46,310 nt of DNA from contig CALVSR010000002.1 in the NCBI GenBank assembly GCA_944359075.1, positions 1-46,310 on the forward strand. The letters are read 5' to 3'. Positions within the stretch are counted from its first letter, which is position 1. Each line of letters begins with the position of its first letter. Below, one piece after another: positions 7,745-37,010 of the stretch. The notes below the pieces were generated by a model. That model saw only the letters and a program-made list of their open reading frames with translations. It was not told the DNA's origin and ran no database searches. The translations under genes and the position numbers were made by a program. Source of the stretch: an uncultured Bacilli bacterium (GTDB lineage Bacteria > Bacillota_I > Bacilli_A > RF39 > UBA660).

Positions 7745-7770
7745 AAAATTATTTCCCGGGAAATAATTTT
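7745..7770. promoter_or_regulatory. Noc-binding-site (NBS) palindrome AAAATTATTTCCCGGGAAATAATTTT
   Basis: Core 7750-7765 is TATTTCCCGGGAAATA, an exact match to the B. subtilis NBS consensus (ATTTCCCGGGAAAT). It lies directly 3' of rsmI and touches the stop codon, so it could also act as a weak bidirectional terminator. Confidence 0.65.
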
Positions 7771-12156: not shown

Positions 12157-13812
12157 CTAATTAATAGATATCATATCTTCTCCAAATAAGTCAATTGCTT
12201 GAGAAGTAATAGAATGATCAGATACCTCTTTTTTTTCTTTATGATACTGCCCTAATTCTAAAGGAATATACTGATATGAAATATTATTGTTTTTCTTTGC
12301 AATAAATTCATCTTTTGCAGTAGTCCATTCATCATTAGTCACCAAAGCAACATCATAATGTCTATTATAAATCTTTTCTAATAATTTTTGAACCTTTTCT
12401 AGTAAAGAAAATCCTCTATTAACCATAGAATCATAATCAAAAGAAATAATAACTTCTCCAGTTCCTACAGCTCTAACTATTCCATCTGAAATGTAACAAG
12501 CCGCAGCACCATATTCACTATCTAAAGCATAATCATTTAGTTTATTCCAGTTAGATTCAAAAAATTTTTTTTCTTTCTTATCTGCCCTAGCAAAACAGTT
12601 ATTAATAATTTGCTGATTTATTTGCTTTCTTTCAGAATCAGAAACTACAATCGATGAGGAAATTATTTCCCGGGAAATAATTTTGGAATCTGTTATGTTG
12701 TTTTTGTAATGTTCTAATTGAGAACTATTATCATTAACACTTAATATTTCAGGAGTTACTGAATTTTCTGATTTTTTATGATTCTGATTCATAAAAGATA
12801 ACATATTAATTTCCAAAATTGTTTTAATATCAGAAGCAGACTTAATATTTTTTAATAAATCATTAAAAACATTAGAAAAAGATAATAAAAATTCAATATT
12901 ATAAGAATCTTCATTTTCAATATAAAATTGAATACTCTTATTTTTGCACAATTGAAGCATATCTTGAATAAAAATAGCTAAATCTTTGCCATTATCATAA
13001 ATATTATCTATAAATTGAATTACCTCAGCGACTTGTTCATGATAAACACAATCTAAAAAATATTTCTTTTGCTGTTCTGAGACAATACCATTTACTTTTT
13101 GAAAATCATCCATTGAAATATTAGAATCAGAATAAGCATTTAATTTATCTAACATACCTACAGCATCTCGTAGACCACCATCCGATAATTCTGCAATTTT
13201 TTCTAATACTTCTGGATCTACTTTAATAGATTCTTTTTCACAAATATATTTCAATCTTTTTACAATATCAGAATTACTAATACGGTGAAACTCAAAGCAT
13301 TGACATCTAGAAATAATAGTGTTGGGAACCTTATGAAGATCAGTAGTAGCCAGAATAAAAATAACATGCTCAGGAGGTTCTTCCAAGGTTTTTAAAAGAG
13401 CATTAAATGCACCAATAGACAACATATGCACCTCATCAATAATATATACCTTATATTTTAATTGATTAGGAACTAAATTAATTTTACTCTTAATTTCTCT
13501 AATTTCATCCACTCCATTATTAGAAGCTGCATCAATTTCAATAATATCGGAGCTAAAACCTTGATTAATAGAAATACAATTTTCACATTTTTCACAGGCA
13601 TCTCCATTATCTAGATTAAGACAATTAACTGTCTTAGCCAGCAACTTAGCAATAGATGTTTTTCCAATCCCCCTAGGTCCAGAAAACATATAAGCATGAC
13701 ATACCTTATTTAACTTAATAGCATTTTTCAATATTTTAATAATTACATCTTGGCCAATTACATCTTCTAAAGTAGAAGGTCTATATTTTCTATATAAAGC
13801 TTGATAAGACAT
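12157..13812 (-). CDS. dnaX: DNA polymerase III gamma/tau subunit
   Basis: YRKYRPSTLEDVIGQD, Walker A GPRGIGKTS, Zn module CEKCENC, DEVHML and the SRC motif (ISRCQ). Confidence 0.95.
   Translation of the reverse strand: MSYQALYRKYRPSTLEDVIGQDVIIKILKNAIKLNKVCHAYMFSGPRGIGKTSIAKLLAKTVNCLNLDNGDACEKCENCISINQGFSSDIIEIDAASNNGVDEIREIKSKINLVPNQLKYKVYIIDEVHMLSIGAFNALLKTLEEPPEHVIFILATTDLHKVPNTIISRCQCFEFHRISNSDIVKRLKYICEKESIKVDPEVLEKIAELSDGGLRDAVGMLDKLNAYSDSNISMDDFQKVNGIVSEQQKKYFLDCVYHEQVAEVIQFIDNIYDNGKDLAIFIQDMLQLCKNKSIQFYIENEDSYNIEFLLSFSNVFNDLLKNIKSASDIKTILEINMLSFMNQNHKKSENSVTPEILSVNDNSSQLEHYKNNITDSKIISREIISSSIVVSDSERKQINQQIINNCFARADKKEKKFFESNWNKLNDYALDSEYGAAACYISDGIVRAVGTGEVIISFDYDSMVNRGFSLLEKVQKLLEKIYNRHYDVALVTNDEWTTAKDEFIAKKNNNISYQYIPLELGQYHKEKKEVSDHSITSQAIDLFGEDMISIN
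12660..12683. promoter_or_regulatory. NBS palindrome embedded in-frame in dnaX
   Basis: Core 12664-12679 is TATTTCCCGGGAAATA. It encodes the peptide IISREII in the variable tau linker. Confidence 0.6.
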
Positions 13813-13873
13813 AATCCACCTCCAAAATATACATATATTATACCATTAAAAAAGCAATAATTATAATCAATTA

Positions 13874-14317
13874 TCACCTTTTTTTCAAAAAAAATTCTTT
13901 CAAAAGCTTAGTACATTCATCTTCCATTACCTTTTCACAGATTTCCACAGATGAACCATAATTTTTATCATTCAAAATAAATGATATAATATCCTTTTCT
14001 GCATATTCTGGAATAGTTCCATAAACAAGCCTTGAAATTCTAGATTGATTAATAGCACTTGCACACATTGGACATGGAAACATAGTTACATATATAGTAC
14101 ATCCAATCAATCTCCAATTTTTTAATTTTGCACAAGCTTTTTCCAACGCAATAATTTCTGCATGCTTTATAACACTTTGTTGTGATTCTCTTAAATTATG
14201 AGCCTTAGCTATAATTTTATCATTTTTCACAATAACAGCACCAACTGGAATCTCTCCTTTAGAAAAAGCTTTTCTAGCCTCTTCCAATGCAATTTTCATA
14301 TAATATTTATCATTCAT
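13874..14317 (-). CDS. tadA: tRNA-specific adenosine deaminase TadA
   Basis: Deaminase motifs HAEIIALE and PCPMCASA. 147 aa. AAGGTGA RBS. Confidence 0.92.
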   Translation of the reverse strand: MNDKYYMKIALEEARKAFSKGEIPVGAVIVKNDKIIAKAHNLRESQQSVIKHAEIIALEKACAKLKNWRLIGCTIYVTMFPCPMCASAINQSRISRLVYGTIPEYAEKDIISFILNDKNYGSSVEICEKVMEDECTKLLKEFFLKKR

Positions 14318-14330
14318 ACATAATCACCTT

Positions 14331-14412
14331 AAAAAAGGTGCACATAAATATTAAATGTTAAGGCTGCTATTTTCCAATCCTGACCTGATTCCACCAATAT
14401 TTATTGCACCAT
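14331..14412 (-). ncRNA. ffs: small (4.5S-type) signal recognition particle RNA
   Basis: The minus strand reads GGUGCAAUAAAUAUUGGUGGAAUCAGGUCAGGAUUGGAAAAUAGCAGCCUUAACAUUUAAUAUUUAUGUGCACCUUUUUU. It contains the conserved domain IV (CAGGUCAGG...GGAA tetraloop...AGCAGCC), a 15-bp closing stem with one bulge and a 3' U-tract. It is adjacent to tadA/dnaX, as scr is in Bacillus. Confidence 0.85.
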
Positions 14413-14416
14413 AAAT

Positions 14417-14445
14417 ATAATATTATATTTTTTGCAAAATTTCAA
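14417..14445 (-). promoter_or_regulatory. sigma-A-type promoter of the SRP RNA
   Basis: On the minus strand: TTGAAA (14440-14445), a 17-nt spacer and TATTAT (14417-14422), about 7 nt upstream of the GGUGC 5' end. Confidence 0.55.
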
Positions 14446-14455
14446 TTATTTTCTA

Positions 14456-14471
14456 TGTTTCACGTGAAACA
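14456..14471. promoter_or_regulatory. parS: parS site 1 (ParB loading site)
   Basis: 16/16 match to TGTTTCACGTGAAACA. Lies ~10 bp upstream of the SRP RNA -35 element. Confidence 0.85.
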
Positions 14472-14660
14472 TCGCAAAAAATTTCAAAAACATCTCTATT
14501 GCAATTTAGTTTAACCAACCTATCATCTATAATTAAAATTTAAAAAAATCAGCATTAAAATTTAAAAGAGATATTTTCATCAGTTAATATAATAATGTTA
14601 TAATTGTTAGAATTTTAAATATATATAGAATACATAAAATTATAATAATAGTCATTCATA

Positions 14661-14676
14661 TGTTTCACGTGAAACA
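14661..14676. promoter_or_regulatory. parS: parS site 2
   Basis: 16/16 match. The palindrome extends to 30 nt (14654-14683). Confidence 0.85.
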
Positions 14677-14875
14677 TATGAATTCTTTTTTATAAATAAA
14701 AAAAGCAATCAATTTGTTTAGTTTCTATTCACCAAATAAAATCATTCTATATTAAATTTAATATTTAATAATCACAGCCAATTATATTAATCAAAATAAT
14801 ATAGTTTCCTATAATATAGGATAAAATATATAAATGAGTATCATATTAATCAAACACTATTTTCTATATAATCAA

Positions 14876-14891
14876 TGTTTCACGTGAAACA
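14876..14891. promoter_or_regulatory. parS: parS site 3
   Basis: 16/16 match. First element of a parS-DnaA box-NBS composite. Confidence 0.85.
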
Positions 14892-14892
14892 T

Positions 14893-14901
14893 TGTGGAAA
14901 A
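14893..14901 (-). promoter_or_regulatory. DnaA-box-like 9-mer TGTGGAAAA (reverse complement TTTTCCACA)
   Basis: Identical to the dominant box variant in this window's oriC. Sandwiched between parS 3 and an NBS. Confidence 0.4.
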
Positions 14902-14924
14902 TTATTTCCCGGGAAATAATTTTC
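14897..14924. promoter_or_regulatory. NBS palindrome (28 nt)
   Basis: Core 14903-14918 is TATTTCCCGGGAAATA. Its centre is 27 bp from the centre of parS 3. Confidence 0.7.
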
Positions 14925-15106
14925 ATGCAATTTCTAGAAAGTAAATATTTCTAATCTAATTTCAACACCTATAATCAAAATTTAAATACGACATTATCAA
15001 ATAATCTTTCATAATATTATTAACTCAGTCATATCAAAAATTACAACTTACATAAGTTCAAAATAATGCAAAAAATAAATATAGCATTCAAATAATCATC
15101 ATTTAA

Positions 15107-15122
15107 TGTTTCACGTGAAACA
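15107..15122. promoter_or_regulatory. parS: parS site 4
   Basis: 16/16 match. The palindrome extends over 15103-15126. Confidence 0.85.
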
Positions 15123-15472
15123 TTAATTTTTTTTATTACTACTTAATTTTTAGTAAATAAGTTAACAAAAAATATCACTACTTTTAAAAAAAAACTAATA
15201 ATTAAATAAACATAATAATATAAATAATTAATATAAATATTAAAAATCATTAAAAAATTATTTTAACAACTATAAATATATATTAATCAAAAAAGCTCAA
15301 ATTCATAATTTTAATTATAACATTTCAAATATATTCTAGTAGTAATATTAATAATTATTTATGCTCCCCATTAATAGAATCTTAATCTCATTAAAATTTT
15401 TATTATCAATAGATTTCAGGATAATAAAAATTTAAACTCATCTATCAATAAGCAATTTAGCTATATGCACAA

Positions 15473-15488
15473 TGTTTCACGTGAAACA
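15473..15488. promoter_or_regulatory. parS: parS site 5
   Basis: 16/16 match. First element of the second composite. Confidence 0.85.
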
Positions 15489-15489
15489 C

Positions 15490-15498
15490 TGTGGAAAA
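15490..15498 (-). promoter_or_regulatory. DnaA-box-like TGTGGAAAA
   Basis: Same 9-mer and same position relative to parS and NBS as in the other composites. Confidence 0.4.
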
Positions 15499-15520
15499 TT
15501 ATTTCCCGGGAAATAATTTT
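15495..15520. promoter_or_regulatory. NBS palindrome (26 nt)
   Basis: Core 15500-15515 is TATTTCCCGGGAAATA. Its centre is 27 bp from the centre of parS 5. Confidence 0.7.
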
Positions 15521-15696
15521 TACTCGATTTATAAAAAATAAATATCTCTAATCTAATTTCAACATCTATAATTAAAATTTAAACACGATATTATTGAAGT
15601 AATTTTGTATAATATTATTACCTAATCTTGCTAAAACTATAACCATAAAATTTTTAAAATATTACTAAACATAGATATATAATTATAATCTTTGAA

Positions 15697-15712
15697 TGTT
15701 TCACGTGAAACA
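15697..15712. promoter_or_regulatory. parS: parS site 6
   Basis: 16/16 match. Confidence 0.85.
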
Positions 15713-16101
15713 TTGTATAAAGTTTATTTTATTGATTATTCTAATTTTTGAACAAAAAACTAATACAAATTATTACCATGCTTTTTAATATAATGATAAA
15801 CACAAAAATAGATATAATAATGTAGAACTATTAATGAAAATATTAAAATTAATTTTCTAACAACAATATTTCAGTAACTATAAAATATATTTTAAAGATC
15901 ATAAAAAATAGAATCATAATATTTAAAATTCAGCTACAATACCTCGAAAATTAAAAATATATTCTTAGTAGTCATATTGATAGCTATTTTCTATTTTAAC
16001 CAATAAAATTTCAAATTTTACTAAAATTTTTATCATAAATAGTTCTAAGAATAATTAATAATAAACTCATCTATTAATAAGAATTTTAACTATATATACA
16101 A

Positions 16102-16117
16102 TGTTTCACGTGAAACA
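16102..16117. promoter_or_regulatory. parS: parS site 7
   Basis: 16/16 match. The palindrome extends over 16098-16121. First element of the third composite. Confidence 0.85.
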
Positions 16118-16118
16118 T

Positions 16119-16127
16119 TGTGGAAAA
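16119..16127 (-). promoter_or_regulatory. DnaA-box-like TGTGGAAAA
   Basis: Same 9-mer and same geometry as in the other composites. Confidence 0.4.
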
Positions 16128-16149
16128 TTATTTCCCGGGAAATAATTTT
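16124..16149. promoter_or_regulatory. NBS palindrome (26 nt)
   Basis: Core 16129-16144 is TATTTCCCGGGAAATA. Its centre is 27 bp from the centre of parS 7. Confidence 0.7.
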
Positions 16150-16337
16150 TATTAAATCTCTAGAAAAGTGAACATTTTTAATCCAATTTTAGTAGATTTT
16201 AACATCCATAATTAGAATTTAAATACAATATTATTAATCTAACTTTTTATAATATAATTACCTAATGGTACTAAAACTATAACTATAAAAAATTTAAGAC
16301 ATCACTAAATGTAAATATTCAATAATAATTATTTCAA

Positions 16338-16353
16338 TGTTTCACGTGAAACA
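16338..16353. promoter_or_regulatory. parS: parS site 8
   Basis: 16/16 match. Lies ~50 bp beyond the gyrA stop codon. Confidence 0.85.
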
Positions 16354-16400
16354 TTATTAAAAACTTTTGCAATTTTACTAATAACAAAAAAGAAAACGTA

Positions 16401-19040
16401 TTACTTATCTTCTAATACGTTTTCCTCTACAACAGTTTCAGTTATATCATTTGTATCATCTGAATCATCTTTTAAAATGGTAGAAACAGTAGCTACTTTT
16501 TGGTCATCTTTTAATTTTATTAATCTAACACCTTGAGTAGCTCTACTTAAAGTAGAAATTTGATCCATCGCCATTCTCATGATAATTCCGCTATCTGTAA
16601 TAATAACCAAATCTTCTTCTCCCGTTACAGCCTTCAAAGATACTAACATACCATTCTTTTCTGTCACATTTAACGCTTTCACACCTTTACTTCCTCGGTG
16701 AGTTAAACGATACTCATCAATTGGGGTCTTTTTACCATAACCCTTTTCTGTAACAATCAAAACTTGCTCATTATTTGTAATAACTTCTCCTCCTACTACT
16801 TTAGCACCATTAAGCTCAATTCCTTTAACACCTGAAGCCGTACGACCCATAATACGAATCTCATTTTCTGTAAATCGAACCATTCTACCATTGGAAGCAC
16901 CAATGATAATCTCATTTTCACCAGTTGTCTTACGGACAGAAATTAACTCATCATCATCTTTAAGATTAATAGCGATTTTACCACTACTTCTAATATTATC
17001 AAACTCTGATAAATCCGTTCTCTTCACAATACCATTTTTAGTGATGAAACATAAATATTTGTATTCATGCTCTTTTGCACTTAAAGATACAATAGAATTA
17101 ATTTGCTCGTCTTTTTCCACAGATAATAAATTAATAATTGGCAGTCCTTTGCTTTGTCTGCTAAATTCTGGAATTTCATACCCTTTCATTCGATACACTT
17201 TACCTTTATTACTAAAGAATAATATATAATCATGCGTTTCCATATTTAACATTTTTTCCACAAAATCTTCCTCATTGGTAGCCATACCTTTTATACCAAC
17301 ACCACCACGGTTTTGTGTTCTATATTCGTCCACTAGCATTCTCTTAATATATCCCTTATTAGTTAATGTTATTAATGTATTTTCAACTGGAATTAAAGAC
17401 TCATCTTCAATATAATCAATCGCAGTCATATCAATTTTAGTTCTTCTATCATCACTGTATTTTTTCTTAATTTCTAACATTTCTTCTTTGATAATATCTA
17501 ATACTCTCTGCTCAGAAGCTAAAATTGCCTTATAATCTGTAATTTTAGCAATTAAATCATTCAATTCTGCTTCTACTTTTCCACGTTCTAAGCCTGTTAA
17601 ACGACGTAATCTCATTTCAAGAATACTATTAGCTTGTATTTCATCCAAATTAAATCGTGTCATCAAGTTAGATCTAGCCTCTTCATCACTATCGGCAGCT
17701 CTAATAATACGAACTACTTCATCAATGTTATCTAAAGCAATTCTTAAGCCTTCTAAAATATGAACTCTTTCTTCTGCTTTTCCCAATTCATAACGAGTTC
17801 TTCTAATAATAACCTCTTTTTGATGATCAATATACTTAGAAATAATATCTTTAATTCCTAAAGTTCTAGGAGTTTGACCATCCAAAACTAAGAAAATAAT
17901 ACCATATGAAATTTGAAAATTAGTATGTTTATACAAGTTATTTAACACAACTTGAGGATTAGCATCTTTTTTTAATGTAATAGTAATTTTAATTCCATTT
18001 TTCAAATCTGTATGATAATCAGAAATACCATCAATTACTTTATTATGAACCAGTTCAGCCACTTTGTTTTTTAGTTCCATTGTATTAACACCATAAGGAA
18101 CTTCATCAACAATAATACAACTATGATTTCCATGTTCTTCAATTGTCGCTTTACTTCTAACTGTAATAGATCCCCTACCTGTTTCATAAGCTTTTTTAAT
18201 ACCAGAATTTCCTAAAATAATACCTCCAGTAGGAAAATCAGGCCCTTTTATATATTGCATTAAACCAATAGTATCAATATCTGGATTGTCAATATAAGCA
18301 ATACAACCATCAATTACTTCACCAAGATTATGAGGAGGAATATTAGTAGCCATACCTACAGCAATTCCCATAGATCCATTAACCAATACATTAGGAAATC
18401 TTGAAGGAAGAACCTTCGGCTCTTTTCTAGTAGCATCAAAATTATCATTCATATCCACAGTATCTTTATTAATATCTCTTAATAATTCCAATGAAATTTT
18501 AGCTAGCCTAGACTCCGTATAACGCATTGCTGCGGCACCATCACCTTCAATATTACCAAAGTTTCCATGTCCATCAATCAACATATATCTTTGATTAAAA
18601 TCCTGAGCAAGTCTAACCATCGCTTCATAGATAGAAGAGTCTCCATGAGGATGATAATTACCCATAACTTCTCCGACTGTTTTAGCACTCTTTCTATGAG
18701 GTTTATCAGGAGTATAACCAGATTCATACATAGACCATAAAATACGTCTATGAACAGGCTTTAAACCATCTCTAAGATCTGGTAATGCACGAGAAGTAAT
18801 AACACTTAAAGAATACTCTAAAAAAGAGGTTTCTACTTCATCTACAATATTATTATTATCTAATCTATCTCTTTCATGAAAATATCCATGAAATTCTCCA
18901 TTTTCTACATTATCAATTCCTAATTGAGAATTATTATCATTAACAATTGATTTATCATCTATAGATTCATTTATATTATCCGTATTATCATTTTCATTTG
19001 CTCTATTTAATAATTCATCTAAATCCTCTTTATTATTCAT
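16401..19040 (-). CDS. gyrA: DNA gyrase subunit A
   Basis: SRALPDLRDGLKPVHRRIL, the active-site region AAMRYTE, and C-terminal beta-pinwheel repeats. Follows gyrB. Carries an Asn/Asp-rich N-terminal extension of about 50 aa and an acidic tail. Confidence 0.97.
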   Translation of the reverse strand: MNNKEDLDELLNRANENDNTDNINESIDDKSIVNDNNSQLGIDNVENGEFHGYFHERDRLDNNNIVDEVETSFLEYSLSVITSRALPDLRDGLKPVHRRILWSMYESGYTPDKPHRKSAKTVGEVMGNYHPHGDSSIYEAMVRLAQDFNQRYMLIDGHGNFGNIEGDGAAAMRYTESRLAKISLELLRDINKDTVDMNDNFDATRKEPKVLPSRFPNVLVNGSMGIAVGMATNIPPHNLGEVIDGCIAYIDNPDIDTIGLMQYIKGPDFPTGGIILGNSGIKKAYETGRGSITVRSKATIEEHGNHSCIIVDEVPYGVNTMELKNKVAELVHNKVIDGISDYHTDLKNGIKITITLKKDANPQVVLNNLYKHTNFQISYGIIFLVLDGQTPRTLGIKDIISKYIDHQKEVIIRRTRYELGKAEERVHILEGLRIALDNIDEVVRIIRAADSDEEARSNLMTRFNLDEIQANSILEMRLRRLTGLERGKVEAELNDLIAKITDYKAILASEQRVLDIIKEEMLEIKKKYSDDRRTKIDMTAIDYIEDESLIPVENTLITLTNKGYIKRMLVDEYRTQNRGGVGIKGMATNEEDFVEKMLNMETHDYILFFSNKGKVYRMKGYEIPEFSRQSKGLPIINLLSVEKDEQINSIVSLSAKEHEYKYLCFITKNGIVKRTDLSEFDNIRSSGKIAINLKDDDELISVRKTTGENEIIIGASNGRMVRFTENEIRIMGRTASGVKGIELNGAKVVGGEVITNNEQVLIVTEKGYGKKTPIDEYRLTHRGSKGVKALNVTEKNGMLVSLKAVTGEEDLVIITDSGIIMRMAMDQISTLSRATQGVRLIKLKDDQKVATVSTILKDDSDDTNDITETVVEENVLEDK

Positions 19041-22234: not shown

Positions 22235-22684
22235 TTATTTTTTCATTTTTCGATCATTTAAAATTAAATTTAATCTAGAAGCTCTCATAATTTGATTTTG
22301 GACAGACTGTTTAGAAGCAATGCATTCTATTTCTTTGCCATTTTTTAATAAAATATATGTCTTATGATTTTGCTCATAAACCTTATCTACCCATTTTAAT
22401 GATATCCAAGTACATTGAACATTTTCTGGTGATGAAATAGGAAAAAAAATCAAATCAGAGCTTTCTTCTACAATAATAGGCAACTTATAATTAGCCCCTA
22501 ACATTTTTCTACTCCCATCTACCCTACCTACATAAGAACTTCCAAAATATTTACAAGAATAATCCATTACTTCATAAGCCATATCTTGAACTAAGTATTC
22601 CCGATTCTGTTCTACGATTCTAGTCTGATTTTTATCCAAACCAATGACAGCTAATGTTTCCTCATTTACTTCATATTTTTCCAT
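22235..22684 (-). CDS. comK: ComK-family competence transcription factor
   Basis: The pattern YEVNEETLAVI...YSCKYFGSSYVGRVDGSRKMLGANYKLPIIV...IFFPISSPENVQCTWISL matches the ComK family. Strong GGGGGGAG RBS. Confidence 0.7.
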   Translation of the reverse strand: MEKYEVNEETLAVIGLDKNQTRIVEQNREYLVQDMAYEVMDYSCKYFGSSYVGRVDGSRKMLGANYKLPIIVEESSDLIFFPISSPENVQCTWISLKWVDKVYEQNHKTYILLKNGKEIECIASKQSVQNQIMRASRLNLILNDRKMKK

Positions 22685-24019: not shown

Positions 24020-24157
24020 ATTTATTCCTTCTTTCTTAATATTTATTATTATTATTACTGTGGAAATTGTGCATAACTAAATATTTACTTTATTTTATCA
24101 CAATTTTTCTTATTTTTGGTTGTGGAAAAAAATTTTAAAAATGCAAAATTATCCACA
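24020..24157. promoter_or_regulatory. oriC: oriC, dnaA-dnaN intergenic half (DnaA boxes plus candidate unwinding region)
   Basis: Boxes are TGTGGAAAT (24059-24067), TGTGGAAAA (24121-24129) and a perfect TTATCCACA (24149-24157), plus a weak TTATCACAA (24095-24103). (TTA)5 and an AT-rich tract abut the first box. Confidence 0.75.
24043..24057. repeat. (TTA)5 = (TAA)5 trinucleotide repeat, candidate DnaA-trio array
   Basis: Five perfect trinucleotide repeats 1 nt from the DnaA box at 24059-24067. On the opposite strand it reads ATTTCCACA-G-(TAA)5. Confidence 0.4.
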
Positions 24158-25555
24158 TTAAACAATTTCTTTCTTTAATTTCTCTATAATATTAGCAAGT
24201 TCTTTATTAGTCAATATCTCTTTTTCAATTTTTTCTACAGAATGCATAACAGTAGAATGATCTTTTCCACCAAATTCAATTCCTATTTTTGGAAAAGATT
24301 CATTGGTAAGTTTTCGACAGAGATACATAGCTACTTGTCTTGGAAATGCAAGGTTAGCACTTCTCTTTTTAGATTTCATATCTTCTACCGATACTTGAAA
24401 ATATTCTGCTACAATTCGTTGAATTCGATTTACACTATTTTTTTCACTATATCCTTTATTAACAAAGTCTTTTAATACATCCACTGCTAAATCTAGAGTA
24501 ATTTCAGTACCACCCATGATAGTGGAATATGCAAGTAATCTCGTAATAGAACCTTCGAGATGTCTAACATCGCTACCAACATTAGAAGCAATATATTCAA
24601 TTACATCATCGGGTATGCTTTTATTAATAGACTCCCCTATGATTTTCTTTTTGATAATAGCAACTCTTAAATCAAAATCGGGAGGAAAAATATCCGCAGT
24701 CAATCCCCAACAGAACCTAGTTCTTAAGCGATCCTCTAATAGTTTTAAGTCATCTGGAGATCGATCAGATGATATAATGATCTGTTTATTTTCATCATAT
24801 AGTTTTGTAAAAGTATTAAAAAATTCATTTTGTGTTTGTGGCGCACCTTGAAAAAATTGAATATCATCTACAATCAAAACATCTATACTTCTATATTTAT
24901 TTTTAAAATAGGAAACATAATCAAAATTTTTTCCATGTTCATCTTTTTTATTAATTCCAAGAAAGTCAGTAATAAATTGGTCACTAGATACATATAAAAC
25001 TTTTTTATTAGAATGTTCTGTAATATAATTTCCAATTGCGTGCATCAAATGTGTTTTCCCTAACCCACTATTTCCATAAATAAATAAAGGATTATAAAGA
25101 ACACCTGGGTTTTCAGCTACTTCTAGTGCCGCAGCTTGGGCAAATTTATTAGTATTTCCTACAATAAAATTATCAAAGGTATAATTTTTATTCAAATTAG
25201 AAGAAAAATTATTAGATGAGTTTTGAAGATTAGTATTTTGTTCATTTTCATTTTGCCAATAAATAGGCTGAATTTTCTCTTGTTGAGCTTGTTGAGAAAG
25301 TTCTTCTATTTCTTCTTGTGTATAAAATTCAATATCTACATTATCTCCTACAACATTACTTAAATTTTTAACAATCAAATCATAGTATTTTGTCGTAAGA
25401 TGTTTTTTATAAATCGACATAGGGACAATGATTTTACAAATACCATCTTTATATTCATATAATTCAGTATTTTGAAACCAAGTCTCAAAGGAAAGAGGAT
25501 TCATTTCGGTTTTAATATTATTTAAAAAATTAGACCATATAATTTTTATATTCAC
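24158..25555 (-). CDS. dnaA: chromosomal replication initiator DnaA
   Basis: AAA+ Walker A GNSGLGKTHL, Walker B VLIVDDIQF, and the domain IV region KIGIEFGGKDHSTVMHS. GTG start with a strong GGGGGGA RBS. Confidence 0.97.
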   Translation of the reverse strand: MNIKIIWSNFLNNIKTEMNPLSFETWFQNTELYEYKDGICKIIVPMSIYKKHLTTKYYDLIVKNLSNVVGDNVDIEFYTQEEIEELSQQAQQEKIQPIYWQNENEQNTNLQNSSNNFSSNLNKNYTFDNFIVGNTNKFAQAAALEVAENPGVLYNPLFIYGNSGLGKTHLMHAIGNYITEHSNKKVLYVSSDQFITDFLGINKKDEHGKNFDYVSYFKNKYRSIDVLIVDDIQFFQGAPQTQNEFFNTFTKLYDENKQIIISSDRSPDDLKLLEDRLRTRFCWGLTADIFPPDFDLRVAIIKKKIIGESINKSIPDDVIEYIASNVGSDVRHLEGSITRLLAYSTIMGGTEITLDLAVDVLKDFVNKGYSEKNSVNRIQRIVAEYFQVSVEDMKSKKRSANLAFPRQVAMYLCRKLTNESFPKIGIEFGGKDHSTVMHSVEKIEKEILTNKELANIIEKLKKEIV

Positions 25556-25614: not shown

Positions 25615-25789
25615 TGTGGAAAAATAAATAGATATTTTCCTGTTTTTTTTAATTCACATGAAATCCACAACTTTTTCCACAAGAAAAAACTATATATATA
25701 TTCATTATAACGCATTTTTCCACAAAAAATAAAAAAATAAATTCACAATGAAGAAAAAGTTATAAACAAGTCTGTGGAAATGTGGAAAA
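25615..25789. promoter_or_regulatory. oriC: oriC, dnaA-upstream DnaA-box cluster
   Basis: TGTGGAAAA at 25615, AAATCCACA at 25661, TTTTCCACA at 25673 and 25716, TGTGGAAAT at 25773, TGTGGAAAA at 25781. Weaker boxes at 25650, 25739 and 25760. Confidence 0.8.
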
Positions 25790-28214: not shown

Positions 28215-29192
28215 ATGAATACTTTAGCATTTATTAAAAGAAAATTAAATTTAATTGACTCTGAGGAAACTGTAAAAAAATTAAAAATTATTTTAAATCA
28301 TTTAGAAGTAGCTGAAAAGCATTTTATCTCTGGAATCAATGATTGTGAAATAGATTTATTTAATGATGCAATTTATAGAACCAATCAAGCGTACGAAGGA
28401 ATATTGCGTCTTGCATATGAGAATATTTTAGAAAAACCTGAAAAAAACAAAACAAATATTGAAATAGAAAAAACACTGTTACAAGAAAAAATTATTAATG
28501 AGCGTACAAAAAATTATATATCGTTATATAGAGGAGATTTTAGAAATAGTTCTATTCATAACTATCAACTTAGATTTAATGAATCAGATGCTTTTATGGC
28601 AATCAACAATACAACTAGTATTTTATATACTTTAATTAATCAATTACTAATTCATGATGCTTATCTAGTAATGAAAGAAAAAAATCACTTAATTGAAGAT
28701 GAAGTGAAAGTATTAATTCACAAAAATTTAAATTTTATAGATTTATTAAAAGAAGCATTATTAATATTTCCAAATATATATTTTAAAAATCCGAAAGAAT
28801 CTGATTTTAATAATGGATTTTATATAATAGGAGAGTTACAAGCTTATTTAGAAAAGATAAATTCAAATTGGAAAATAACTATATTGCCAGGTATAGAAGA
28901 TATGAAAATGATGGAATTATTGGAACAAGCAAATGTATCTTCACCACCAGATTTAATAATAGAACATCAAGAAGAAATGATAAGAATAGATATATGTACA
29001 GATAAAGATTTTCATTTTCGGAAAAATTTTCTTCACAATATAGAACAAAGTAATATTTTTTATAATGTAAAACAAGCCTTTATTCTACAATTAACAGAAA
29101 AAACTGAATATACGATTACCCGGGAACTAAAAGAACCCATTTTAGTCGAAAGAATACATCCAATTAAGGAAAGGAAAGATGAATATGAATGA
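28215..29192 (+). CDS. two-domain hypothetical protein with an N-terminal HEPN-like domain (Rx4HxY motif)
   Basis: FRNSSIHNY (R110...H115.Y117, nt 28542-28565) fits the HEPN/HepT RNase motif R-x4-H-x-Y. It is preceded by helical segments (AIYRTNQAYEGILRLAYENIL). The C-terminal ~170 aa are unassigned. AGAAGG RBS. The 3' end overlaps the mnmE start by 14 nt. Confidence 0.5.
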   Translation: MNTLAFIKRKLNLIDSEETVKKLKIILNHLEVAEKHFISGINDCEIDLFNDAIYRTNQAYEGILRLAYENILEKPEKNKTNIEIEKTLLQEKIINERTKNYISLYRGDFRNSSIHNYQLRFNESDAFMAINNTTSILYTLINQLLIHDAYLVMKEKNHLIEDEVKVLIHKNLNFIDLLKEALLIFPNIYFKNPKESDFNNGFYIIGELQAYLEKINSNWKITILPGIEDMKMMELLEQANVSSPPDLIIEHQEEMIRIDICTDKDFHFRKNFLHNIEQSNIFYNVKQAFILQLTEKTEYTITRELKEPILVERIHPIKERKDEYE

Positions 29193-31441: not shown

Positions 31442-31469
31442 AAAAATTATTTCCCGGGAAATAATTTTT
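31442..31469. promoter_or_regulatory. NBS palindrome (28 nt)
   Basis: Core 31448-31463 is TATTTCCCGGGAAATA. Lies between the small ORF and mnmG and may also act as a terminator. Confidence 0.65.
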
Positions 31470-31550: not shown

Positions 31551-33410
31551 ATGAAGTATGACATAATTGTAGTAGGAGGAGGGCATGCTGGATGTGAAGC
31601 ATCACTAGCAGCAGCTCGCCTTGGAAATAAAACTTTACTAGTAACAGGAAATATCAAAAACATAGCTGATATGCCTTGTAATCCATCAATTGGAGGACCA
31701 GCTAAAGGAATTATCGTAAGAGAAATTGATGCACTAGGTGGAGAAATGGCTAATAATATTGATCACAGTTGTCTTCAAGTAAAGATGCTAAATACTAAAA
31801 AAGGTCCTGCAGTCCGCGCTCTACGTGCTCAAGGAGATAAAATTACTTATCCAAAAGTAATGTTAGAAACATTAAATAAACAAGAAAATCTAGATATAAA
31901 AGAATCATTAGTAGAAGATTTGATGATAGAAGATAACATAGTAAAAGGAGTAGTATTAGAAGATGGAGAAAAAATCACATCTAAAGCTGTCATTCTAACA
32001 ACAGGAACCTACTTAAAAGCAGTAATATTAAGAGGATCTAAGAAAACAGAAAGTGGGCCTCATGGTGAAAGACCATCTAAATTCTTAAGTGATAAATTAA
32101 GAGAATATGGATTTACCATTCAAAGATTAAAAACAGGTACTCCTCAAAGGATTGATAAGAATAGTATTGATTACTCCAAAACCAGTTTAGAATCAGGGGA
32201 TAACATAGCATATACTTTCTCCTTTGATAATGAGCCTTTATATAAAGTAGAAGATCAAGTGCCATGTCATTTGATTTATACAACGAAAGAAACTCACCAA
32301 ATTATTATGGAAAACCTAGAAAAATCTAGTATGTATGGTGGTTATGTAGAAGGAATTGGGCCTAGATATTGTCCATCTATTGAAGATAAAGTAGTTAGAT
32401 TTAAAGATAAAGAACGACATCAATTATTCTTAGAACCAGAAAGCTTATATTATGATGATATTTATATTCAAGGATTTTCTACTAGTATGCCAGAAGATGT
32501 GCAAGATTTAATGGTACATAGTTTGCCAGGATTAGAACATGCTAAGATTTTAAAATATGCTTATGCTATTGAATATGACGCCATTGATCCGTTACAGTTA
32601 AAGCAATCATTGGAGACAAAAATCATTGAAAATTTGTTTACTGCCGGTCAAATTAATGGAACTAGTGGTTATGAAGAAGCAGCTGGTCAGGGATTAATAG
32701 CTGGAATCAATGCATCACGTAAAATTCATCATCAAGAACCATTAATATTAAAAAGAAATGAAGCTTATATTGGAGTTTTAATTGATGATTTAGTAACCAA
32801 AGGAACCAAAGAACCATATCGAATGTTAACTTCTCGTGCAGAATATCGATTGCTTCTTCGTCATGATAATGCAGATTTAAGATTAAGAGACTATGGTTAT
32901 AATATTGGACTGATATCAGAAGAAAAATATCAGAAATTCTTAAAGAAAAAAGCAGATATTCAAGAGTTAATCAATTTATTAAAAACGAATAAAATTACTC
33001 CAACTAAAGATAACAATGAATATTTAGAGAGTATTGGTTCAACTAGATTATTGGATGGAATTACCTTATATGATTTATTAAAAAGACCAGAAATTGCCCT
33101 AGAAACTATAAGTCATTGGCTAGATATTGAATATTCTAATGAAGTAAAAGAACAAGTTGAAATTCAAATAAAATATGACGGATACATTCGAAAAGCAACT
33201 AGAGAAGCAGAAAAAATGTTAGATTTAGAGAAAGTAAAAATACCAGAAAATATAGATTATGATCGTATACCCAATTTAGCTAGTGAAGCAAGACAAAAAC
33301 TATCCAATATAAGACCAACTACGATTGCTCAAGCATCTCGAATTAGTGGAGTAAATCCCGCAGATATTTCCATTCTAATGATATATTTAAAAAAGGAAAA
33401 AAGAATATGA
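31551..33410 (+). CDS. mnmG: tRNA uridine 5-carboxymethylaminomethyl modification enzyme MnmG (GidA)
   Basis: FAD motif YDIIVVGGGHAGCEA, GPRYCPSIEDK and 619 aa. Confidence 0.97.
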   Translation: MKYDIIVVGGGHAGCEASLAAARLGNKTLLVTGNIKNIADMPCNPSIGGPAKGIIVREIDALGGEMANNIDHSCLQVKMLNTKKGPAVRALRAQGDKITYPKVMLETLNKQENLDIKESLVEDLMIEDNIVKGVVLEDGEKITSKAVILTTGTYLKAVILRGSKKTESGPHGERPSKFLSDKLREYGFTIQRLKTGTPQRIDKNSIDYSKTSLESGDNIAYTFSFDNEPLYKVEDQVPCHLIYTTKETHQIIMENLEKSSMYGGYVEGIGPRYCPSIEDKVVRFKDKERHQLFLEPESLYYDDIYIQGFSTSMPEDVQDLMVHSLPGLEHAKILKYAYAIEYDAIDPLQLKQSLETKIIENLFTAGQINGTSGYEEAAGQGLIAGINASRKIHHQEPLILKRNEAYIGVLIDDLVTKGTKEPYRMLTSRAEYRLLLRHDNADLRLRDYGYNIGLISEEKYQKFLKKKADIQELINLLKTNKITPTKDNNEYLESIGSTRLLDGITLYDLLKRPEIALETISHWLDIEYSNEVKEQVEIQIKYDGYIRKATREAEKMLDLEKVKIPENIDYDRIPNLASEARQKLSNIRPTTIAQASRISGVNPADISILMIYLKKEKRI

Positions 33411-34108
33411 ATATAAAAGGATTTATAGAAGAAACAAAAAAGTTAGGAATAGAATTAACAGATGCTCAACTACAAAAATTAGAAAAATTTTATGAATTAT
33501 TAATTTTCTGGAATGAAAAAATAAATTTAACCCGAATTACTAAAAAAGAAGATGTATATCTAAAACACTTTTATGATAGCCTAACTTTATATAAAGTAAT
33601 CAATCTAAATGATGATTTCACTTTATGTGATGTAGGTAGTGGAGCAGGATTCCCAGGTATTGTTTTAAAAATAGTTTTTCCTAATTTAAAAGTAACTTTA
33701 ATTGATTCTCTCCAAAAGCGAGTAAATTATTTAAATGAAATAATCCAAGAGTTAGATTTATTCAATATAGAGGCAATTCATACTAGAGCAGAAGATTATG
33801 CTAGAAATAATAGAGAAAAATTTGATATTGTAACAGCACGAGCCGTAGCAAACTTAAAAATTTTATCTGAATTGTGTCTTCCTATGGTAAAAGAAAAAGG
33901 CTATTTTATAGCTTTAAAAGCTAATATAGAAGAAGAACTAGAAAATAGTAAAGAGATGATAAAAAAATTAAATAGTAGCATAGAAAAAATAGAAACTTTT
34001 AATTTACCAATAGAACATAGTCTTAGAAACCTAGTAAAAATAAAAAAAGAAAGAAAAACAAATCCCATATATCCAAGAAGAATGGATAAAATAAAGAATG
34101 AAAGCTAA
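33407..34108 (+). CDS. rsmG: 16S rRNA (guanine527-N7)-methyltransferase RsmG (GidB)
   Basis: WNEKINLTRI...HFYDSL and the SAM motif DVGSGAGFPGI. Overlaps the mnmG stop. Confidence 0.95.
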   Translation: MNIKGFIEETKKLGIELTDAQLQKLEKFYELLIFWNEKINLTRITKKEDVYLKHFYDSLTLYKVINLNDDFTLCDVGSGAGFPGIVLKIVFPNLKVTLIDSLQKRVNYLNEIIQELDLFNIEAIHTRAEDYARNNREKFDIVTARAVANLKILSELCLPMVKEKGYFIALKANIEEELENSKEMIKKLNSSIEKIETFNLPIEHSLRNLVKIKKERKTNPIYPRRMDKIKNES

Positions 34109-34137
34109 GTCAAAACCACAATTTTTGACTTTTTTTC
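34108..34137 (+). terminator. intrinsic terminator after rsmG
   Basis: AGTCAAAA-N7-TTTTGACT followed by a T7 run. Confidence 0.65.
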
Positions 34138-34209
34138 TTGTGAAATGATAAAATTATGTTATACTATAGATAGTAGAAAAGAGTAAAAAGAACGAAAAGA
34201 GGGTAAATT

Positions 34210-35256
34210 ATGGATAAAGAAGTAGTAGAACTATACTTAGATGATATAATTCCAAATCGTTTTCAACCACGTGAAGTATTTAATGAAGAAGCGTTAAAGG
34301 AATTATCAGATTCTATTAAAGAACATGGAGTAATTCAACCAATTATTGTGAGAAAAATAGGCGATAAATATGAAATTATTGCGGGAGAAAGAAGATATAA
34401 AGCATCTGCTATGGCTGGTCTAACTAAAATTCCAGCTATTATCCGTAATCTTGATGATAAAGAAGCTTCTAAAGTAGCTCTTTTAGAAAATTTGCAAAGG
34501 AAAGATTTAACAGCAATAGAAGAAGCAAGAACTTATCAAAAAATATTAGAATTAGATTCTATGACACAAGAAGAATTAGGACGAACTATGGGAAAATCTC
34601 AAGCAGCAATTGCTAATAAAATGAGATTATTATCACTACCAGATGAAGTTCAAGAAGCACTTTTACAAGATAAAATATCAGAGCGTCATGCTAGAAGTCT
34701 ATTAAATTTGGATACAAGTGAAGAACAAATAAACATGTTAAGAAAAATTATTGAAAATCGTATGACAGTAAGAGATTTAGATAATGAAATTAGGAATATA
34801 AAAGGAGAAAATACAATTTCATCTATTATGAATCATGATAATATAGCCATAGTGCCAGAAAATAAATCCACAATAAATCAACCAACTTCTATTTTAGAAA
34901 GCTCAAAATTAGAATCTAATTCAGTGGAAGAAAAACAATCCGAAGCAGAAGATGCTTTACCTGATTTTCCTTTACCAACTCCTAATCCAATTGAAAATCT
35001 AGAAGAATATATGGAAGAAGACTCAAAAGACCAAATCAAGATAGAGCCTGTTTCTAAACCTTCTCAACCGGATTCTGATTTTAAAATGATTGATGAATTA
35101 TTAAAATCTACACAGACTTATACTATAAAAGATGCAGTAAATGAAATTAAAAGTGTAACTGCTAAAGCAGAAAATAAAGGAATCCATATAAAAGTAGAAG
35201 AAATGGATTTTGAAAACAATTATCAAATCATTATAAATATCGAAAAAAATAAGTAA
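34210..35256 (+). CDS. noc: Noc-like ParB-family protein (nucleoid occlusion protein paralogue)
   Basis: ParB N-domain (IPNRFQPR, IIAGERRYKAS). The HTH GKSQAAIANKMRLLSLP has Gln where ParB has Arg, as Noc does. The C-terminus VEEMDFENNYQIIINIEKNK resembles the Noc C-terminus as I recall it. Sits between rsmG and soj as in Bacillus. Perfect NBS sites are present in the window. Confidence 0.75.
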   Translation: MDKEVVELYLDDIIPNRFQPREVFNEEALKELSDSIKEHGVIQPIIVRKIGDKYEIIAGERRYKASAMAGLTKIPAIIRNLDDKEASKVALLENLQRKDLTAIEEARTYQKILELDSMTQEELGRTMGKSQAAIANKMRLLSLPDEVQEALLQDKISERHARSLLNLDTSEEQINMLRKIIENRMTVRDLDNEIRNIKGENTISSIMNHDNIAIVPENKSTINQPTSILESSKLESNSVEEKQSEAEDALPDFPLPTPNPIENLEEYMEEDSKDQIKIEPVSKPSQPDSDFKMIDELLKSTQTYTIKDAVNEIKSVTAKAENKGIHIKVEEMDFENNYQIIINIEKNK

Positions 35257-35281
35257 AAAGTAGAAGTTCTACTTTTTTTTT
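35255..35281 (+). terminator. intrinsic terminator after noc
   Basis: AAAAAGTAGA-AGT-TCTACTTTTT with a long T-run. Confidence 0.6.
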
Positions 35282-35347
35282 CGAAAATCATTTCATAATT
35301 GGCCATTATTTGTTAAAATAGAAGAGTACAAAAGAAAAGGTGGTAGT

Positions 35348-36136
35348 ATGGGAAAGATCATTTCATTAGTAAATCAAAAAGGTGGAGTAGGAAAAACAAC
35401 AACTAGTATTAATCTTTCTGCATCACTGGCATATTTAGGTAAAAAAGTATTATTAATTGATTTAGATCCTCAAGGAAATACAACAACGGGAGTAGGAATT
35501 AATAAAGGGGATATTACAAACAGTGTCCATGAAGTATTAACAGAAAAATGCAATATCACAGAAGCAATTATTAAAACAAAATATAAAAATCTTTATGTTT
35601 TACCAGCAACTATTAATTTAGCAGGATTAGATATGGAATTAATGGAAAAGAGTAAAACAAATCAAAATTTTATCAAGAATGCACAGTTAAAAACATTTCT
35701 AGATCCTATTAAAGATGTATTTAATTACATTATCATCGATTGTCCTCCATCTTTAGGACTTATTACAACCAATGCTTTAACTGCTTCTGATTCTGTAATT
35801 ATTCCTGTTCAATGTGAATTTTTTGCTTTGGAGGGAATTACGCAATTATTGAATACCATTATGCTAGCTCAAAAGAATTTAAATCCTAATCTAGATATAG
35901 AAGGTGTTTTATTAACAATGTTAGATTCAAGAACTCTTTTAGGATTAGAAGTAGTGGAAGATATTCGTAGATTTTTTAAAGAAAGAGTCTATAATACAAT
36001 TATTCCAAGATTAGTAAAATTAACAGAAGCACCATCTCATGGGAAACCCATATTAGCTTATGACCCAAAACATAGGGCGACAGAAGCATATATAAATTTA
36101 GCAAAGGAAGTGATTGCAAGAAATGGAAACATCTAG
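35348..36136 (+). CDS. soj: chromosome partitioning ATPase ParA/Soj
   Basis: Deviant Walker A NQKGGVGKTTT, followed by DLDPQGN and DCPPSLG. Confidence 0.95.
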   Translation: MGKIISLVNQKGGVGKTTTSINLSASLAYLGKKVLLIDLDPQGNTTTGVGINKGDITNSVHEVLTEKCNITEAIIKTKYKNLYVLPATINLAGLDMELMEKSKTNQNFIKNAQLKTFLDPIKDVFNYIIIDCPPSLGLITTNALTASDSVIIPVQCEFFALEGITQLLNTIMLAQKNLNPNLDIEGVLLTMLDSRTLLGLEVVEDIRRFFKERVYNTIIPRLVKLTEAPSHGKPILAYDPKHRATEAYINLAKEVIARNGNI

Positions 36137-37010
36137 GAGAAAAGCCTTAGGAAGAGGCTTAGAAGAGTTATTTAATAATGAACCAATGGAATATAATAAA
36201 ATTGAGGAGAAAATAATAGAAGAGACCAATAATGAAGAAATTGTAGAACTTCCCTTATCAGAATTAAGAAGTAATCCATATCAACCTCGAAAGAACTTTG
36301 ATGAAAATGCTCTACAAGAATTAGCTACTTCTATTAAAGAACATGGTGTATTCCAACCAATTATTGCCAAAAAAAGTATTAAAGGATATGAAATTATTGC
36401 CGGTGAACGACGTGTAAAAGCTTCTATCTTAGCAGGAAAAGAAACGATTCCAGCTATTATCCGTGATTTTTCTGACCAAGATATGATGGAAATAGCATTA
36501 CTAGAAAATCTACAAAGAGAAAATCTAAATGCCATAGAAGAAGCAATGGCTTATAAAAAATTATTAGATGAATTACATTTAACCCAAGAATCTCTTGCAA
36601 AGAGATTAGGAAAAAGTAGAAGTCATATTACCAATATGTTAGGGTTATTAACTTTACCAGAAGAAGTAAAAGATATGATTATGACTGGCAAACTTTCTAT
36701 GAGTCATGCCCGTGTTTTAAGTAAAATTGAAAATAGTGACCAAATCAAGGAATTGGCTGACAAAATTATTGTAGATGGTTTAAGTGTACGTGAAATAGAG
36801 GAATTATCTCATAATACCAATCTAGAAAAGAAAAATGTTCAAACGAAGCACGATACAAATCGCAATGAATATAAAGTAATAGAAGAAGAATTATCAGAAA
36901 AACTTGGTACCAAAGTTCGTATCAAAAACAACAAAATAGAATTACATTTTGTAAATTCAAGTGATTTGAATAGAATCATAGAAATTATAGGATTAGAAAA
37001 CGAATGTTAG
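36123..37010 (+). CDS. spo0J: chromosome partitioning protein ParB/Spo0J
   Basis: N-terminal ParA-interaction peptide RKALGRGLEELF, NPYQPR, IIAGERRVKAS, and the HTH GKSRSHITNMLGLLTLP (Arg-type). The start is either the ATG at 36123 or the TTG at 36114. Confidence 0.93.
   Translation: METSRRKALGRGLEELFNNEPMEYNKIEEKIIEETNNEEIVELPLSELRSNPYQPRKNFDENALQELATSIKEHGVFQPIIAKKSIKGYEIIAGERRVKASILAGKETIPAIIRDFSDQDMMEIALLENLQRENLNAIEEAMAYKKLLDELHLTQESLAKRLGKSRSHITNMLGLLTLPEEVKDMIMTGKLSMSHARVLSKIENSDQIKELADKIIVDGLSVREIEELSHNTNLEKKNVQTKHDTNRNEYKVIEEELSEKLGTKVRIKNNKIELHFVNSSDLNRIIEIIGLENEC

Follow-up and report, generated by a model that had tools for sequence, protein, structure and literature searches.

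We analyzed a 46,310-bp stretch of DNA from an uncultured Bacilli bacterium of the RF39 lineage (contig CALVSR010000002.1, hereafter the window), in which a gene-free interval next to the replication origin carries a dense array of parS, the site recognized by the chromosomal partition protein ParB. The interval is bordered on the left by the signal recognition particle (SRP) RNA gene ffs (14329-14415, minus strand; Rfam RF00169, 57 bits), beyond which lies tadA (13874-14317, minus strand), and on the right by the stop codon of gyrA (16401-19040, minus strand), both protein genes being assigned with Pfam. A search for the perfect consensus located eight copies of the 16-mer TGTTTCACGTGAAACA: parS 1 (14456-14471), parS 2 (14661-14676), parS 3 (14876-14891), parS 4 (15107-15122), parS 5 (15473-15488), parS 6 (15697-15712), parS 7 (16102-16117) and parS 8 (16338-16353), the last of them 47 bp from the gyrA stop codon. 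All eight (8/8) match the 16-bp palindrome of chromosomal parS, TGTTNCACGTGAAACA, perfectly. A preliminary description of this DNA had reported the same eight sites and no others, and no ninth copy was found in the window even when up to two mismatches were allowed; the spacings it gave were also reproduced when recomputed, at 205, 215, 231, 366, 224, 405 and 236 bp from start to start. The chance expectation for this 16-mer in the window is 0.02, and none of 100 shuffled sequences reached eight copies. The array thus holds eight perfect sites in 1.9 kb, or one parS per ~240 bp.

The gap was previously described as lacking any open reading frame (ORF) of 60 aa or more, which is borne out: the longest ORF in 14420-16400 is only 36 aa. 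We therefore rejected the idea that the array conceals a protein-coding or RNA gene, also because no tRNA and no Rfam family besides the SRP RNA was detected in the interval. Its GC content is 17-24%, with 17% at 15-16 kb, and it is rich in repeats. A sigma-70-like -35/-10 pair (TTGAAA-17-TATTAT; 14445-14417, minus strand) stands ahead of the SRP RNA gene, and parS 1 starts 10 bp upstream of its -35-like hexamer, the distance noted before. Promoter-like matches in the AT-rich array as a whole are not above chance (30 vs 28.7 in shuffles), and we make no claim for putative array promoters except this element upstream of the SRP RNA gene. A terminator scan also picked up parS 2, which sits in the middle of a perfect palindrome of 30 bp, ATTCATATGTTTCACGTGAAACATATGAAT (14654-14683), with a T-run after it; read-through transcripts, if any, might end there.

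The position of the array with respect to the origin can be read from three features, namely the location of dnaA (24158-25555, minus strand), a switch in the sign of the GC skew at ~25.5-26 kb, and DnaA boxes on both sides of dnaA. These boxes comprise an oriC cluster upstream of the gene with four copies of TTTTCCACA (25615-25789) and further boxes between dnaA and dnaN (24068-24157). On this basis the array is placed ~9-11 kb from the oriC box cluster, on the left replichore, and its distance from dnaA is ~8-10 kb, in accordance with the earlier estimate.

The array is not composed of parS alone. A seed-and-extend repeat search revealed a higher-order repeat at 14864-16400 (plus strand; repeat families D1, D3, D5 and D6), with units of ~600-640 bp that start at 14864, 15461 and 16090, i.e. 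597 and 629 bp apart, and are 67-88% identical across their first 134 nt. Tandem Repeats Finder did not report a repeat on the scale of the array, as the divergence of the units and their long period put them out of its reach. Each unit opens with a composite module, begun by parS 3, parS 5 and parS 7 in modules 1, 2 and 3, respectively, and a second parS follows 224-236 bp on. The preceding segment (14444-14863), with two parS and none of the palindromes described below, looks like an older, decayed unit. The inter-unit spacers at 15123-15472 and 15713-16101 are extremely AT-rich and have diverged repeats in common (families D6 and D7).

In every unit a perfect palindrome of 26 nt, AAAATTATTTCCCGGGAAATAATTTT, comes 12 nt after the leading parS, and its core is the binding site of the B. 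subtilis ParB paralogue Noc (Noc-binding site, NBS), expressed either as the 14-mer ATTTCCCGGGAAAT or in its 16-bp form TATTTCCCGGGAAATA (consensus from PMC7383237). These palindromes occupy 14898-14923 in module 1 (core at 14903-14918), 15495-15520 in module 2 and 16124-16149 in module 3, so that parS and NBS are fused within ~27 bp, centre to centre. The NBS 14-mer has six perfect copies in the window vs 0.18 expected, three of which are in the array. The other three, spread over 44 kb, show the same extended palindrome and are found in an intergenic region (7751-7764), inside dnaX (12665-12678, a copy that independent metagenome contigs carry too) and upstream of mnmG (31449-31462). The 12-nt spacer between parS and NBS reads T-TGTGGAAAA-TT, and the complement of its 9-mer, TTTTCCACA, is a DnaA box with one mismatch, located at 14893-14901, 15490-15498 and 16119-16127 (all on the minus strand). 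The window contains 10 exact copies of this 9-mer vs 0.61 expected: five copies flank dnaA (24121-24129; 25615-25789), three are in the parS-NBS spacers and two are in gyrA. The spacer variant is therefore identical to the one at this organism's own oriC. Of the satellite-like parS array first proposed, the parS cluster stands but is an incomplete description, as the sites form a composite of parS, DnaA-box-like 9-mer and NBS in a genome that also encodes a Noc-like paralogue.

Diverged, AT-rich repeats invite the suspicion of non-functional DNA, whether an assembly artefact, a satellite or what is left of a partition locus from a plasmid or phage. The low GC content and repeat-rich character of the interval would suit such an origin, as would the tendency of short-read contigs (L001-L010) to stop within it, at 14922, 15024, 15160 and 15461, although ends of this kind are expected of a repeat. 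Exact-protein look-ups of the window's TadA and GyrA retrieved independent contigs from other samples and assemblers. Those on the tadA side match window positions 13800-15461 at 99.0% (L003/L007) and 13800-15160 at 99.9% (L009), and one on the gyrA side (L011) matches 15177-16900 at 100%; the two sides overlap by 285 bp and jointly reproduce all eight parS and all three NBS palindromes. The repeat units differ by 12-33%, and the tiling is therefore unambiguous. An assembly artefact was rejected since independent contigs tile the whole array at 99-100% identity with an overlap. A plasmid or phage origin was likewise rejected: blastn of the array against sets of 72,556 plasmids and 50,697 phages detected no similarity, and a pattern scan of 2.9 million viral contigs found no parS-NBS composite (0). 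With its position maintained in relatives at GyrA identities down to 57%, and with only the binding sites conserved there (see below), we regard non-functional repeat DNA as very improbable. Since short-read assemblies of this species repeatedly break inside the array, metagenome-assembled genomes of these gut lineages are expected to be fragmented often next to oriC.

The proteins expected to read these sites are also encoded in the window, with parAB about 18-20 kb from the array. The gene order rsmG-noc-parA-parB (33407-37010) is the same as that of gidB-noc-soj-spo0J in B. subtilis: rsmG (33407-34108) is followed by a 348-aa Noc-like ParB paralogue in the noc position (34210-35256), a ParA/Soj ATPase (35348-36136) and a ParB/Spo0J of 298 aa from a TTG start (36114-37010), the latter three all on the plus strand. 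The ParB has the domains ParB_N, HTH_ParB and ParB_C, an N-terminal LGRGL motif (ParA interaction), the GERR motif (CTP) and GKSR, with R at the equivalent of position 173. Preference for parS or NBS is set by four positions, which are R173/T179/A184/G201 in ParB and Q/K/K/R in Noc (Jalal et al., PMC7383237); the residues Q, K, K and R reprogram ParB to NBS, and a single permissive K is sufficient (PMC7383237). With consensus sites, ParA and a parS-type ParB all present in the window, the earlier proposal of a dedicated, non-coding, repeat-built parS cluster near oriC holds.

The Noc-like protein reads GKSQAAIANK...ERHAR at the same positions, i.e. Q, K, S, R, and also has the GERR CTP motif. 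Among solved structures it is closest to those of Noc (7NG0/7NFU/7OL9; 208-191 bits), with Spo0J/ParB structures at or below 183 bits, and it scores 291.3 bits against the NCBIfam Noc model TIGR04285 vs 237 bits for the window's ParB. By gene position and DNA-reading residues, the 348-aa paralogue is thus a predicted Noc orthologue. Its N-terminus, MDKEVVELYLDDIIPNRFQPR, is short: 14 residues precede the PNRFQPR motif, a TAA stop in the same frame is found two codons upstream of the start, and residue 4 aligns to Noc residue 27/28. From the start position, the upstream stop and this alignment it follows that the N-terminal amphipathic helix is missing. In B. subtilis Noc this highly conserved helix is the part that binds the membrane, and the protein cannot function without it (PMC4331003). 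Among the 120 closest homologues of the protein, the short N-terminus is present in 116 and the specificity residues are QKSR in 119 and QKTR in one. The family is near-invariant over residues 1-195, followed by a variable acidic linker of ~100 residues (200-295) and a moderately conserved C-terminal domain of ~50 residues. A hydrophobic-moment scan for a substitute amphipathic helix singled out nothing informative, as the positive control did not stand out either. Since it lacks the membrane helix, the Noc-like protein would act differently from B. subtilis Noc and probably does not work as that protein does.

To place the array in a comparative context, one genome per species (185,579 species) was scanned for parS-N(0-30)-NBS, and 120 loci (L012-L131) were listed. 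At least 120 species carry parS-NBS composites, and all matches listed come from uncultured gut "Bacilli". Some of the genomes bear the labels Tenericutes, Mollicutes, Erysipelotrichaceae or Clostridium sp. CAG:710 in their deposits. Among the lineages represented are Candidatus Scybalousia and Ca. Onthousia, the latter classed by NCBI under Bacilli incertae sedis; in GTDB terms the placement is probably with the reduced-genome Bacilli of the RFN20/RF39 type. The hosts include humans, rabbits, chickens and ruminants. In every listed locus the composite adjoins the 3' end of gyrA and/or tadA, as judged by tblastn with the window proteins; both genes are present in 78 loci, and GyrA identity to the window ranges from 57 to 99%. 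A comparison of the tadA-gyrA interval among relatives had been suggested from the start, and every parS of the loci fetched from these species is in that neighborhood. With up to one mismatch, the arrays (one chain per locus) hold 471 parS, or 3.5/kb, vs 0 in the 761 kb elsewhere in the loci. At the same tolerance NBS number 271 in the arrays (2.0/kb) vs 50 in the 761 kb elsewhere (0.066/kb), and after one ascertained NBS per locus is dropped, the array density of 1.1/kb is still ~17-fold above that of the flanks.

Array size varies considerably within this group. Among the 81 listed arrays that are not cut by the end of the locus, parS number from 1 to 9 with a median of 3-4, and the eight perfect sites of the window are at the top of the range together with L020 and L094 (nine each) and L068 and L131 (eight each). 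Relatives may hold nine parS in 0.9 kb, with parS spacing down to a 75-bp period, and two loci (L056 and L036) show strictly alternating parS and NBS with periods of 75 or 84 bp. Relatives carry from four to eight parS in the same interval (eight in L068), and close ones differ in copy number: five in L097 (GyrA 98.5% identical to the window), seven in L136 (~84% nucleotide identity in gyrA), five in L058 (GyrA 90%) and four in L112 (GyrA 89%). In L136 (4287-4330 and 5100-5150) one module keeps parS and TTTTCCACA with the NBS core changed from CCCGGG to TCTAGA, and another has an NBS with one mismatch, from which we conclude that the NBS can decay while parS and box persist.

Such decay is what would be seen if ParB simply used the eight parS as a plain centromere and the NBS and DnaA-box-like 9-mers were passengers of tandem duplication with no role at this locus. 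The three window modules are indeed copies of one ~600-bp unit, NBS are also present elsewhere in the window, the L136 module with a decayed NBS has an intact parS, and many relatives' arrays contain more parS than NBS. Passengers would not, however, be expected to show the ~17-fold enrichment of NBS in arrays that persists after correction for ascertainment across the 120 listed species, nor the pattern of conservation between species. When the modules of the window and ten other loci are aligned, only ATGTTTCACGTGAAACAT, TGTGGA(T)AA and ATTATTTCCCGGGAAATAATT are conserved, so that an island of parS, box and NBS is kept base for base between species whose flanks are unalignable. Selection appears to act on the sites and not on the repeat.

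Two further observations run against passengers. A DnaA box with up to one mismatch is present in the parS-NBS spacer of 16 of the 120 listed species vs 0.8 expected from shuffled spacers (maximum of 4 in 300 shuffles), and a perfect box in five vs 0.03 expected; the species concerned include lineages at only 67-74% GyrA identity to the window. Such boxes, far above chance in distant lineages, make DnaA binding sites a candidate third component of the array that is recurrent, not universal. In addition, the distances between adjacent parS and NBS centres (L012-L131) peak at ~26, 36, 46, 56, 67 and 78 bp, with a best period of 10.5 bp (p~0.0008 vs a smoothed null after de-duplication), and the periodicity is also detected above 45 bp, outside the constraint of the search pattern (p~0.009). 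These values are suggestive of the two dimers favouring one rotational setting, at a phase of ~0.4 turn. Phasing between parS sites is not significant (p~0.09), and the analysis of NBS-NBS phasing rests on only 24 pairs. Taken with the enrichment and the conserved islands, the spacer boxes and the helical phasing make it unlikely that parS alone matters in these arrays.

The boxes also raise the question of whether the locus serves mainly in the control of replication or transcription, either as a sink for DnaA resembling datA or a DnaA-box cluster, or as a block built by ParB and Noc that silences or insulates, and would thereby adjust DnaA availability or how strongly ffs, tadA and gyrA are expressed. 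Each module holds a DnaA-box variant identical to that of oriC, parS 1 abuts the promoter-like element of the SRP RNA gene, and Noc of S. aureus restrains DnaA-dependent initiation, as seen genetically (PMC5540599). Set against this, the window has only three boxes in its array, each one mismatch from the consensus; 104 of the 120 listed species have no spacer box and still keep the parS/NBS array; and the 16-mer is the universal centromere site of ParB, with ParA and ParB encoded nearby. Control as the chief function of the locus accordingly seems unlikely to us, to much the same degree as a plain parS centromere, and such a role is possible as an addition to a centromere.

We therefore consider it likely that this interval serves an uncultured gut Bacilli lineage of low GC content as its chromosomal centromere, built as a dual loading zone for ParB and the Noc-like protein. 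Its foundation is what can be read directly from the genomes: the sites and their statistics, the anatomy of the repeat, the diagnostic residues of the two proteins and a position conserved in at least 120 species. CTP-dependent ParB clamps would nucleate at the eight consensus parS and spread across origin-proximal DNA, forming a partition complex for ParA to act on and, if other bacteria are a guide, an entry point for SMC. At three of the parS, the conserved module order of parS, DnaA-box variant TGTGGAAAA and NBS palindrome would add a second clamp of the ParB family, as the NBS would nucleate the Noc-like protein without its membrane-targeting N-terminus. The two proteins would then share the origin region, and DnaA might be drawn in or shut out between them. 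The array itself probably grew through tandem duplication of a ~600-bp unit. Candidate roles for the Noc-like protein at such a centromere are co-compaction of the origin region, limiting or shaping the spread of ParB, or modulating DnaA. Because parS, box and NBS form a composite and a Noc-like paralogue is encoded alongside ParB, the mechanism is likely to differ from that of an array read as parS only.

A more specific scenario, to which we give less credence and offer tentatively, is that Noc has been repurposed in this clade. Having lost its helix, it would no longer exert membrane-tethered nucleoid occlusion and would instead be a centromere-resident partner of ParB, with the two CTP clamps loading next to each other at parS-NBS modules set in helical phase and, in some lineages, a DnaA box between them. 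One array might in this way couple segregation, origin compaction and initiation control. If this were true, the array would be the first hybrid centromere from nature at which two different ParB-family clamps are loaded.

Several points weigh against the dual loading zone and temper the confidence placed in it. The Noc-like protein has S where Noc has K (Q, K, S, R vs Q, K, K, R), and its 291 bits miss the TIGR04285 cut-off of 315 bits. It is without the helix that is essential in B. subtilis, so a role cannot simply be transferred to it from Noc. The three modules of the window are copies of one duplication, and the juxtaposition of parS, box and NBS therefore counts as one event in this genome. 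The comparative set was picked by requiring one parS-NBS pair per locus; being a selected set of at least 120 listed species, it does not establish how frequent the array is in the clade or that it is absent outside it. Kinship among the loci is not fully removed from the phasing analysis, which is why the rotational setting is graded only as suggestive. The parS count covers 46 kb of the genome, and further parS elsewhere are possible. Finally, the host is uncultured, and binding, spreading, SMC loading and coupling of ParB, the Noc-like protein and DnaA are what we infer from the sites and proteins described above.

Two ORFs in the vicinity of the origin are recorded here for completeness. 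A 149-aa ORF with a match to the ComK domain (22235-22684, minus strand) lies between recF and dnaN in an otherwise canonical dnaA-dnaN-recF-gyrB-gyrA block; relatives keep it at 32-60% identity, and no NCBIfam model matches it. An ORF of 325 aa (28215-29192, plus strand) is located between jag and mnmE and has no Pfam or NCBIfam match.

Comparison with known systems helps to define what is unusual about the array. Iterated centromeres of plasmids and phages, such as F sopC, R1 parC and P1 parS, gather many partition sites in a short, non-coding, repeat-amplified stretch, and the array resembles them in its dense packing, its lack of genes and its amplification by repeats. It differs from them in being chromosomal, with conserved synteny, universal chromosomal parS and, in this genome, irregular spacing, and in being located between housekeeping genes instead of beside parAB. 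Concentrations of accessory or DnaA sites that organize or regulate the origin region are also known, in the form of the B. subtilis RacA-ram sites and DnaA-box clusters outside oriC; those involve other proteins and motifs, whereas the present array joins its accessory sites directly to parS, within ~27 bp from centre to centre.

The preliminary description had contrasted the array with chromosomal parS that are dispersed in the species studied, and had assigned dense arrays to plasmids or prophages. This contrast was too strong, as bacterial parS normally lie in clusters near oriC. Most bacteria keep their parS inside a region of 5-40 kb, and only a few lineages, the Bacilli among them, have scattered sites (PMC8357415). 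Corynebacterium glutamicum has 10 mostly intergenic parS in 35 kb (PMC7083940), Myxococcus xanthus has 24 parS upstream of parAB (PMC3778016), and 20-23 parS are present in Streptomyces coelicolor and Listeria innocua (PMC7333895). The array is like the chromosomal clusters of C. glutamicum, M. xanthus, Caulobacter and P. aeruginosa in having multiple, mostly intergenic 16-bp consensus sites near oriC together with a chromosomal ParA/ParB. It is unlike them in that eight perfect sites are confined to 1.9 kb of gene-free, tandem-duplicated DNA, that they are interleaved with sites for a second protein of the ParB family, and that the array is fixed between gyrA and tadA/ffs, ~18 kb from parAB. 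What is unusual here is accordingly the density of sites and a gene-free interval given over to them.

With the Noc-NBS systems of B. subtilis and S. aureus the locus shares an identical NBS core, TATTTCCCGGGAAATA, the position of noc between rsmG and soj-spo0J, the residues Q, K and R, the CTP-binding motifs and extra NBS scattered in the region. Noc-NBS systems have NBS dispersed over the chromosome but not near its terminus. In B. subtilis NBS are scattered around the chromosome, whereas here they are paired with parS. The protein also departs from Noc in its missing ~25 N-terminal residues, which include the amphipathic helix essential in B. subtilis (PMC4331003), in its long, variable, acidic linker and in a TIGR04285 score below the cut-off. 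A literature search returned no report of parS physically fused or paired to NBS or of mixed parS/NBS arrays, although absence there is not proof that they are unpublished; nor did it return a gene-free parS array at this density, a Noc orthologue without the membrane helix, or anything relevant on parS in RF39 or Mollicutes-like lineages. Neither parS at such extreme density nor conserved modules of parS, NBS and DnaA box appear to have been described so far.

The presence of this kind of array in at least 120 species suggests an undescribed way of organizing a bacterial centromere. ParB and Noc are the two model CTP-switch clamps and are usually described with separate sites and separate jobs, segregation for the one and division-site control for the other. 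An array in which their sites are interleaved at a fixed helical phase would offer a natural system for asking how two sliding clamps share or partition DNA. It also bears on what Noc can do without membrane binding, and on whether the genetic link between Noc and DnaA in S. aureus is a physical one. Lastly, the clade provides close relatives whose homologous intervals hold from 1 to 9 sites, a setting in which to ask why the copy number and clustering of parS vary.

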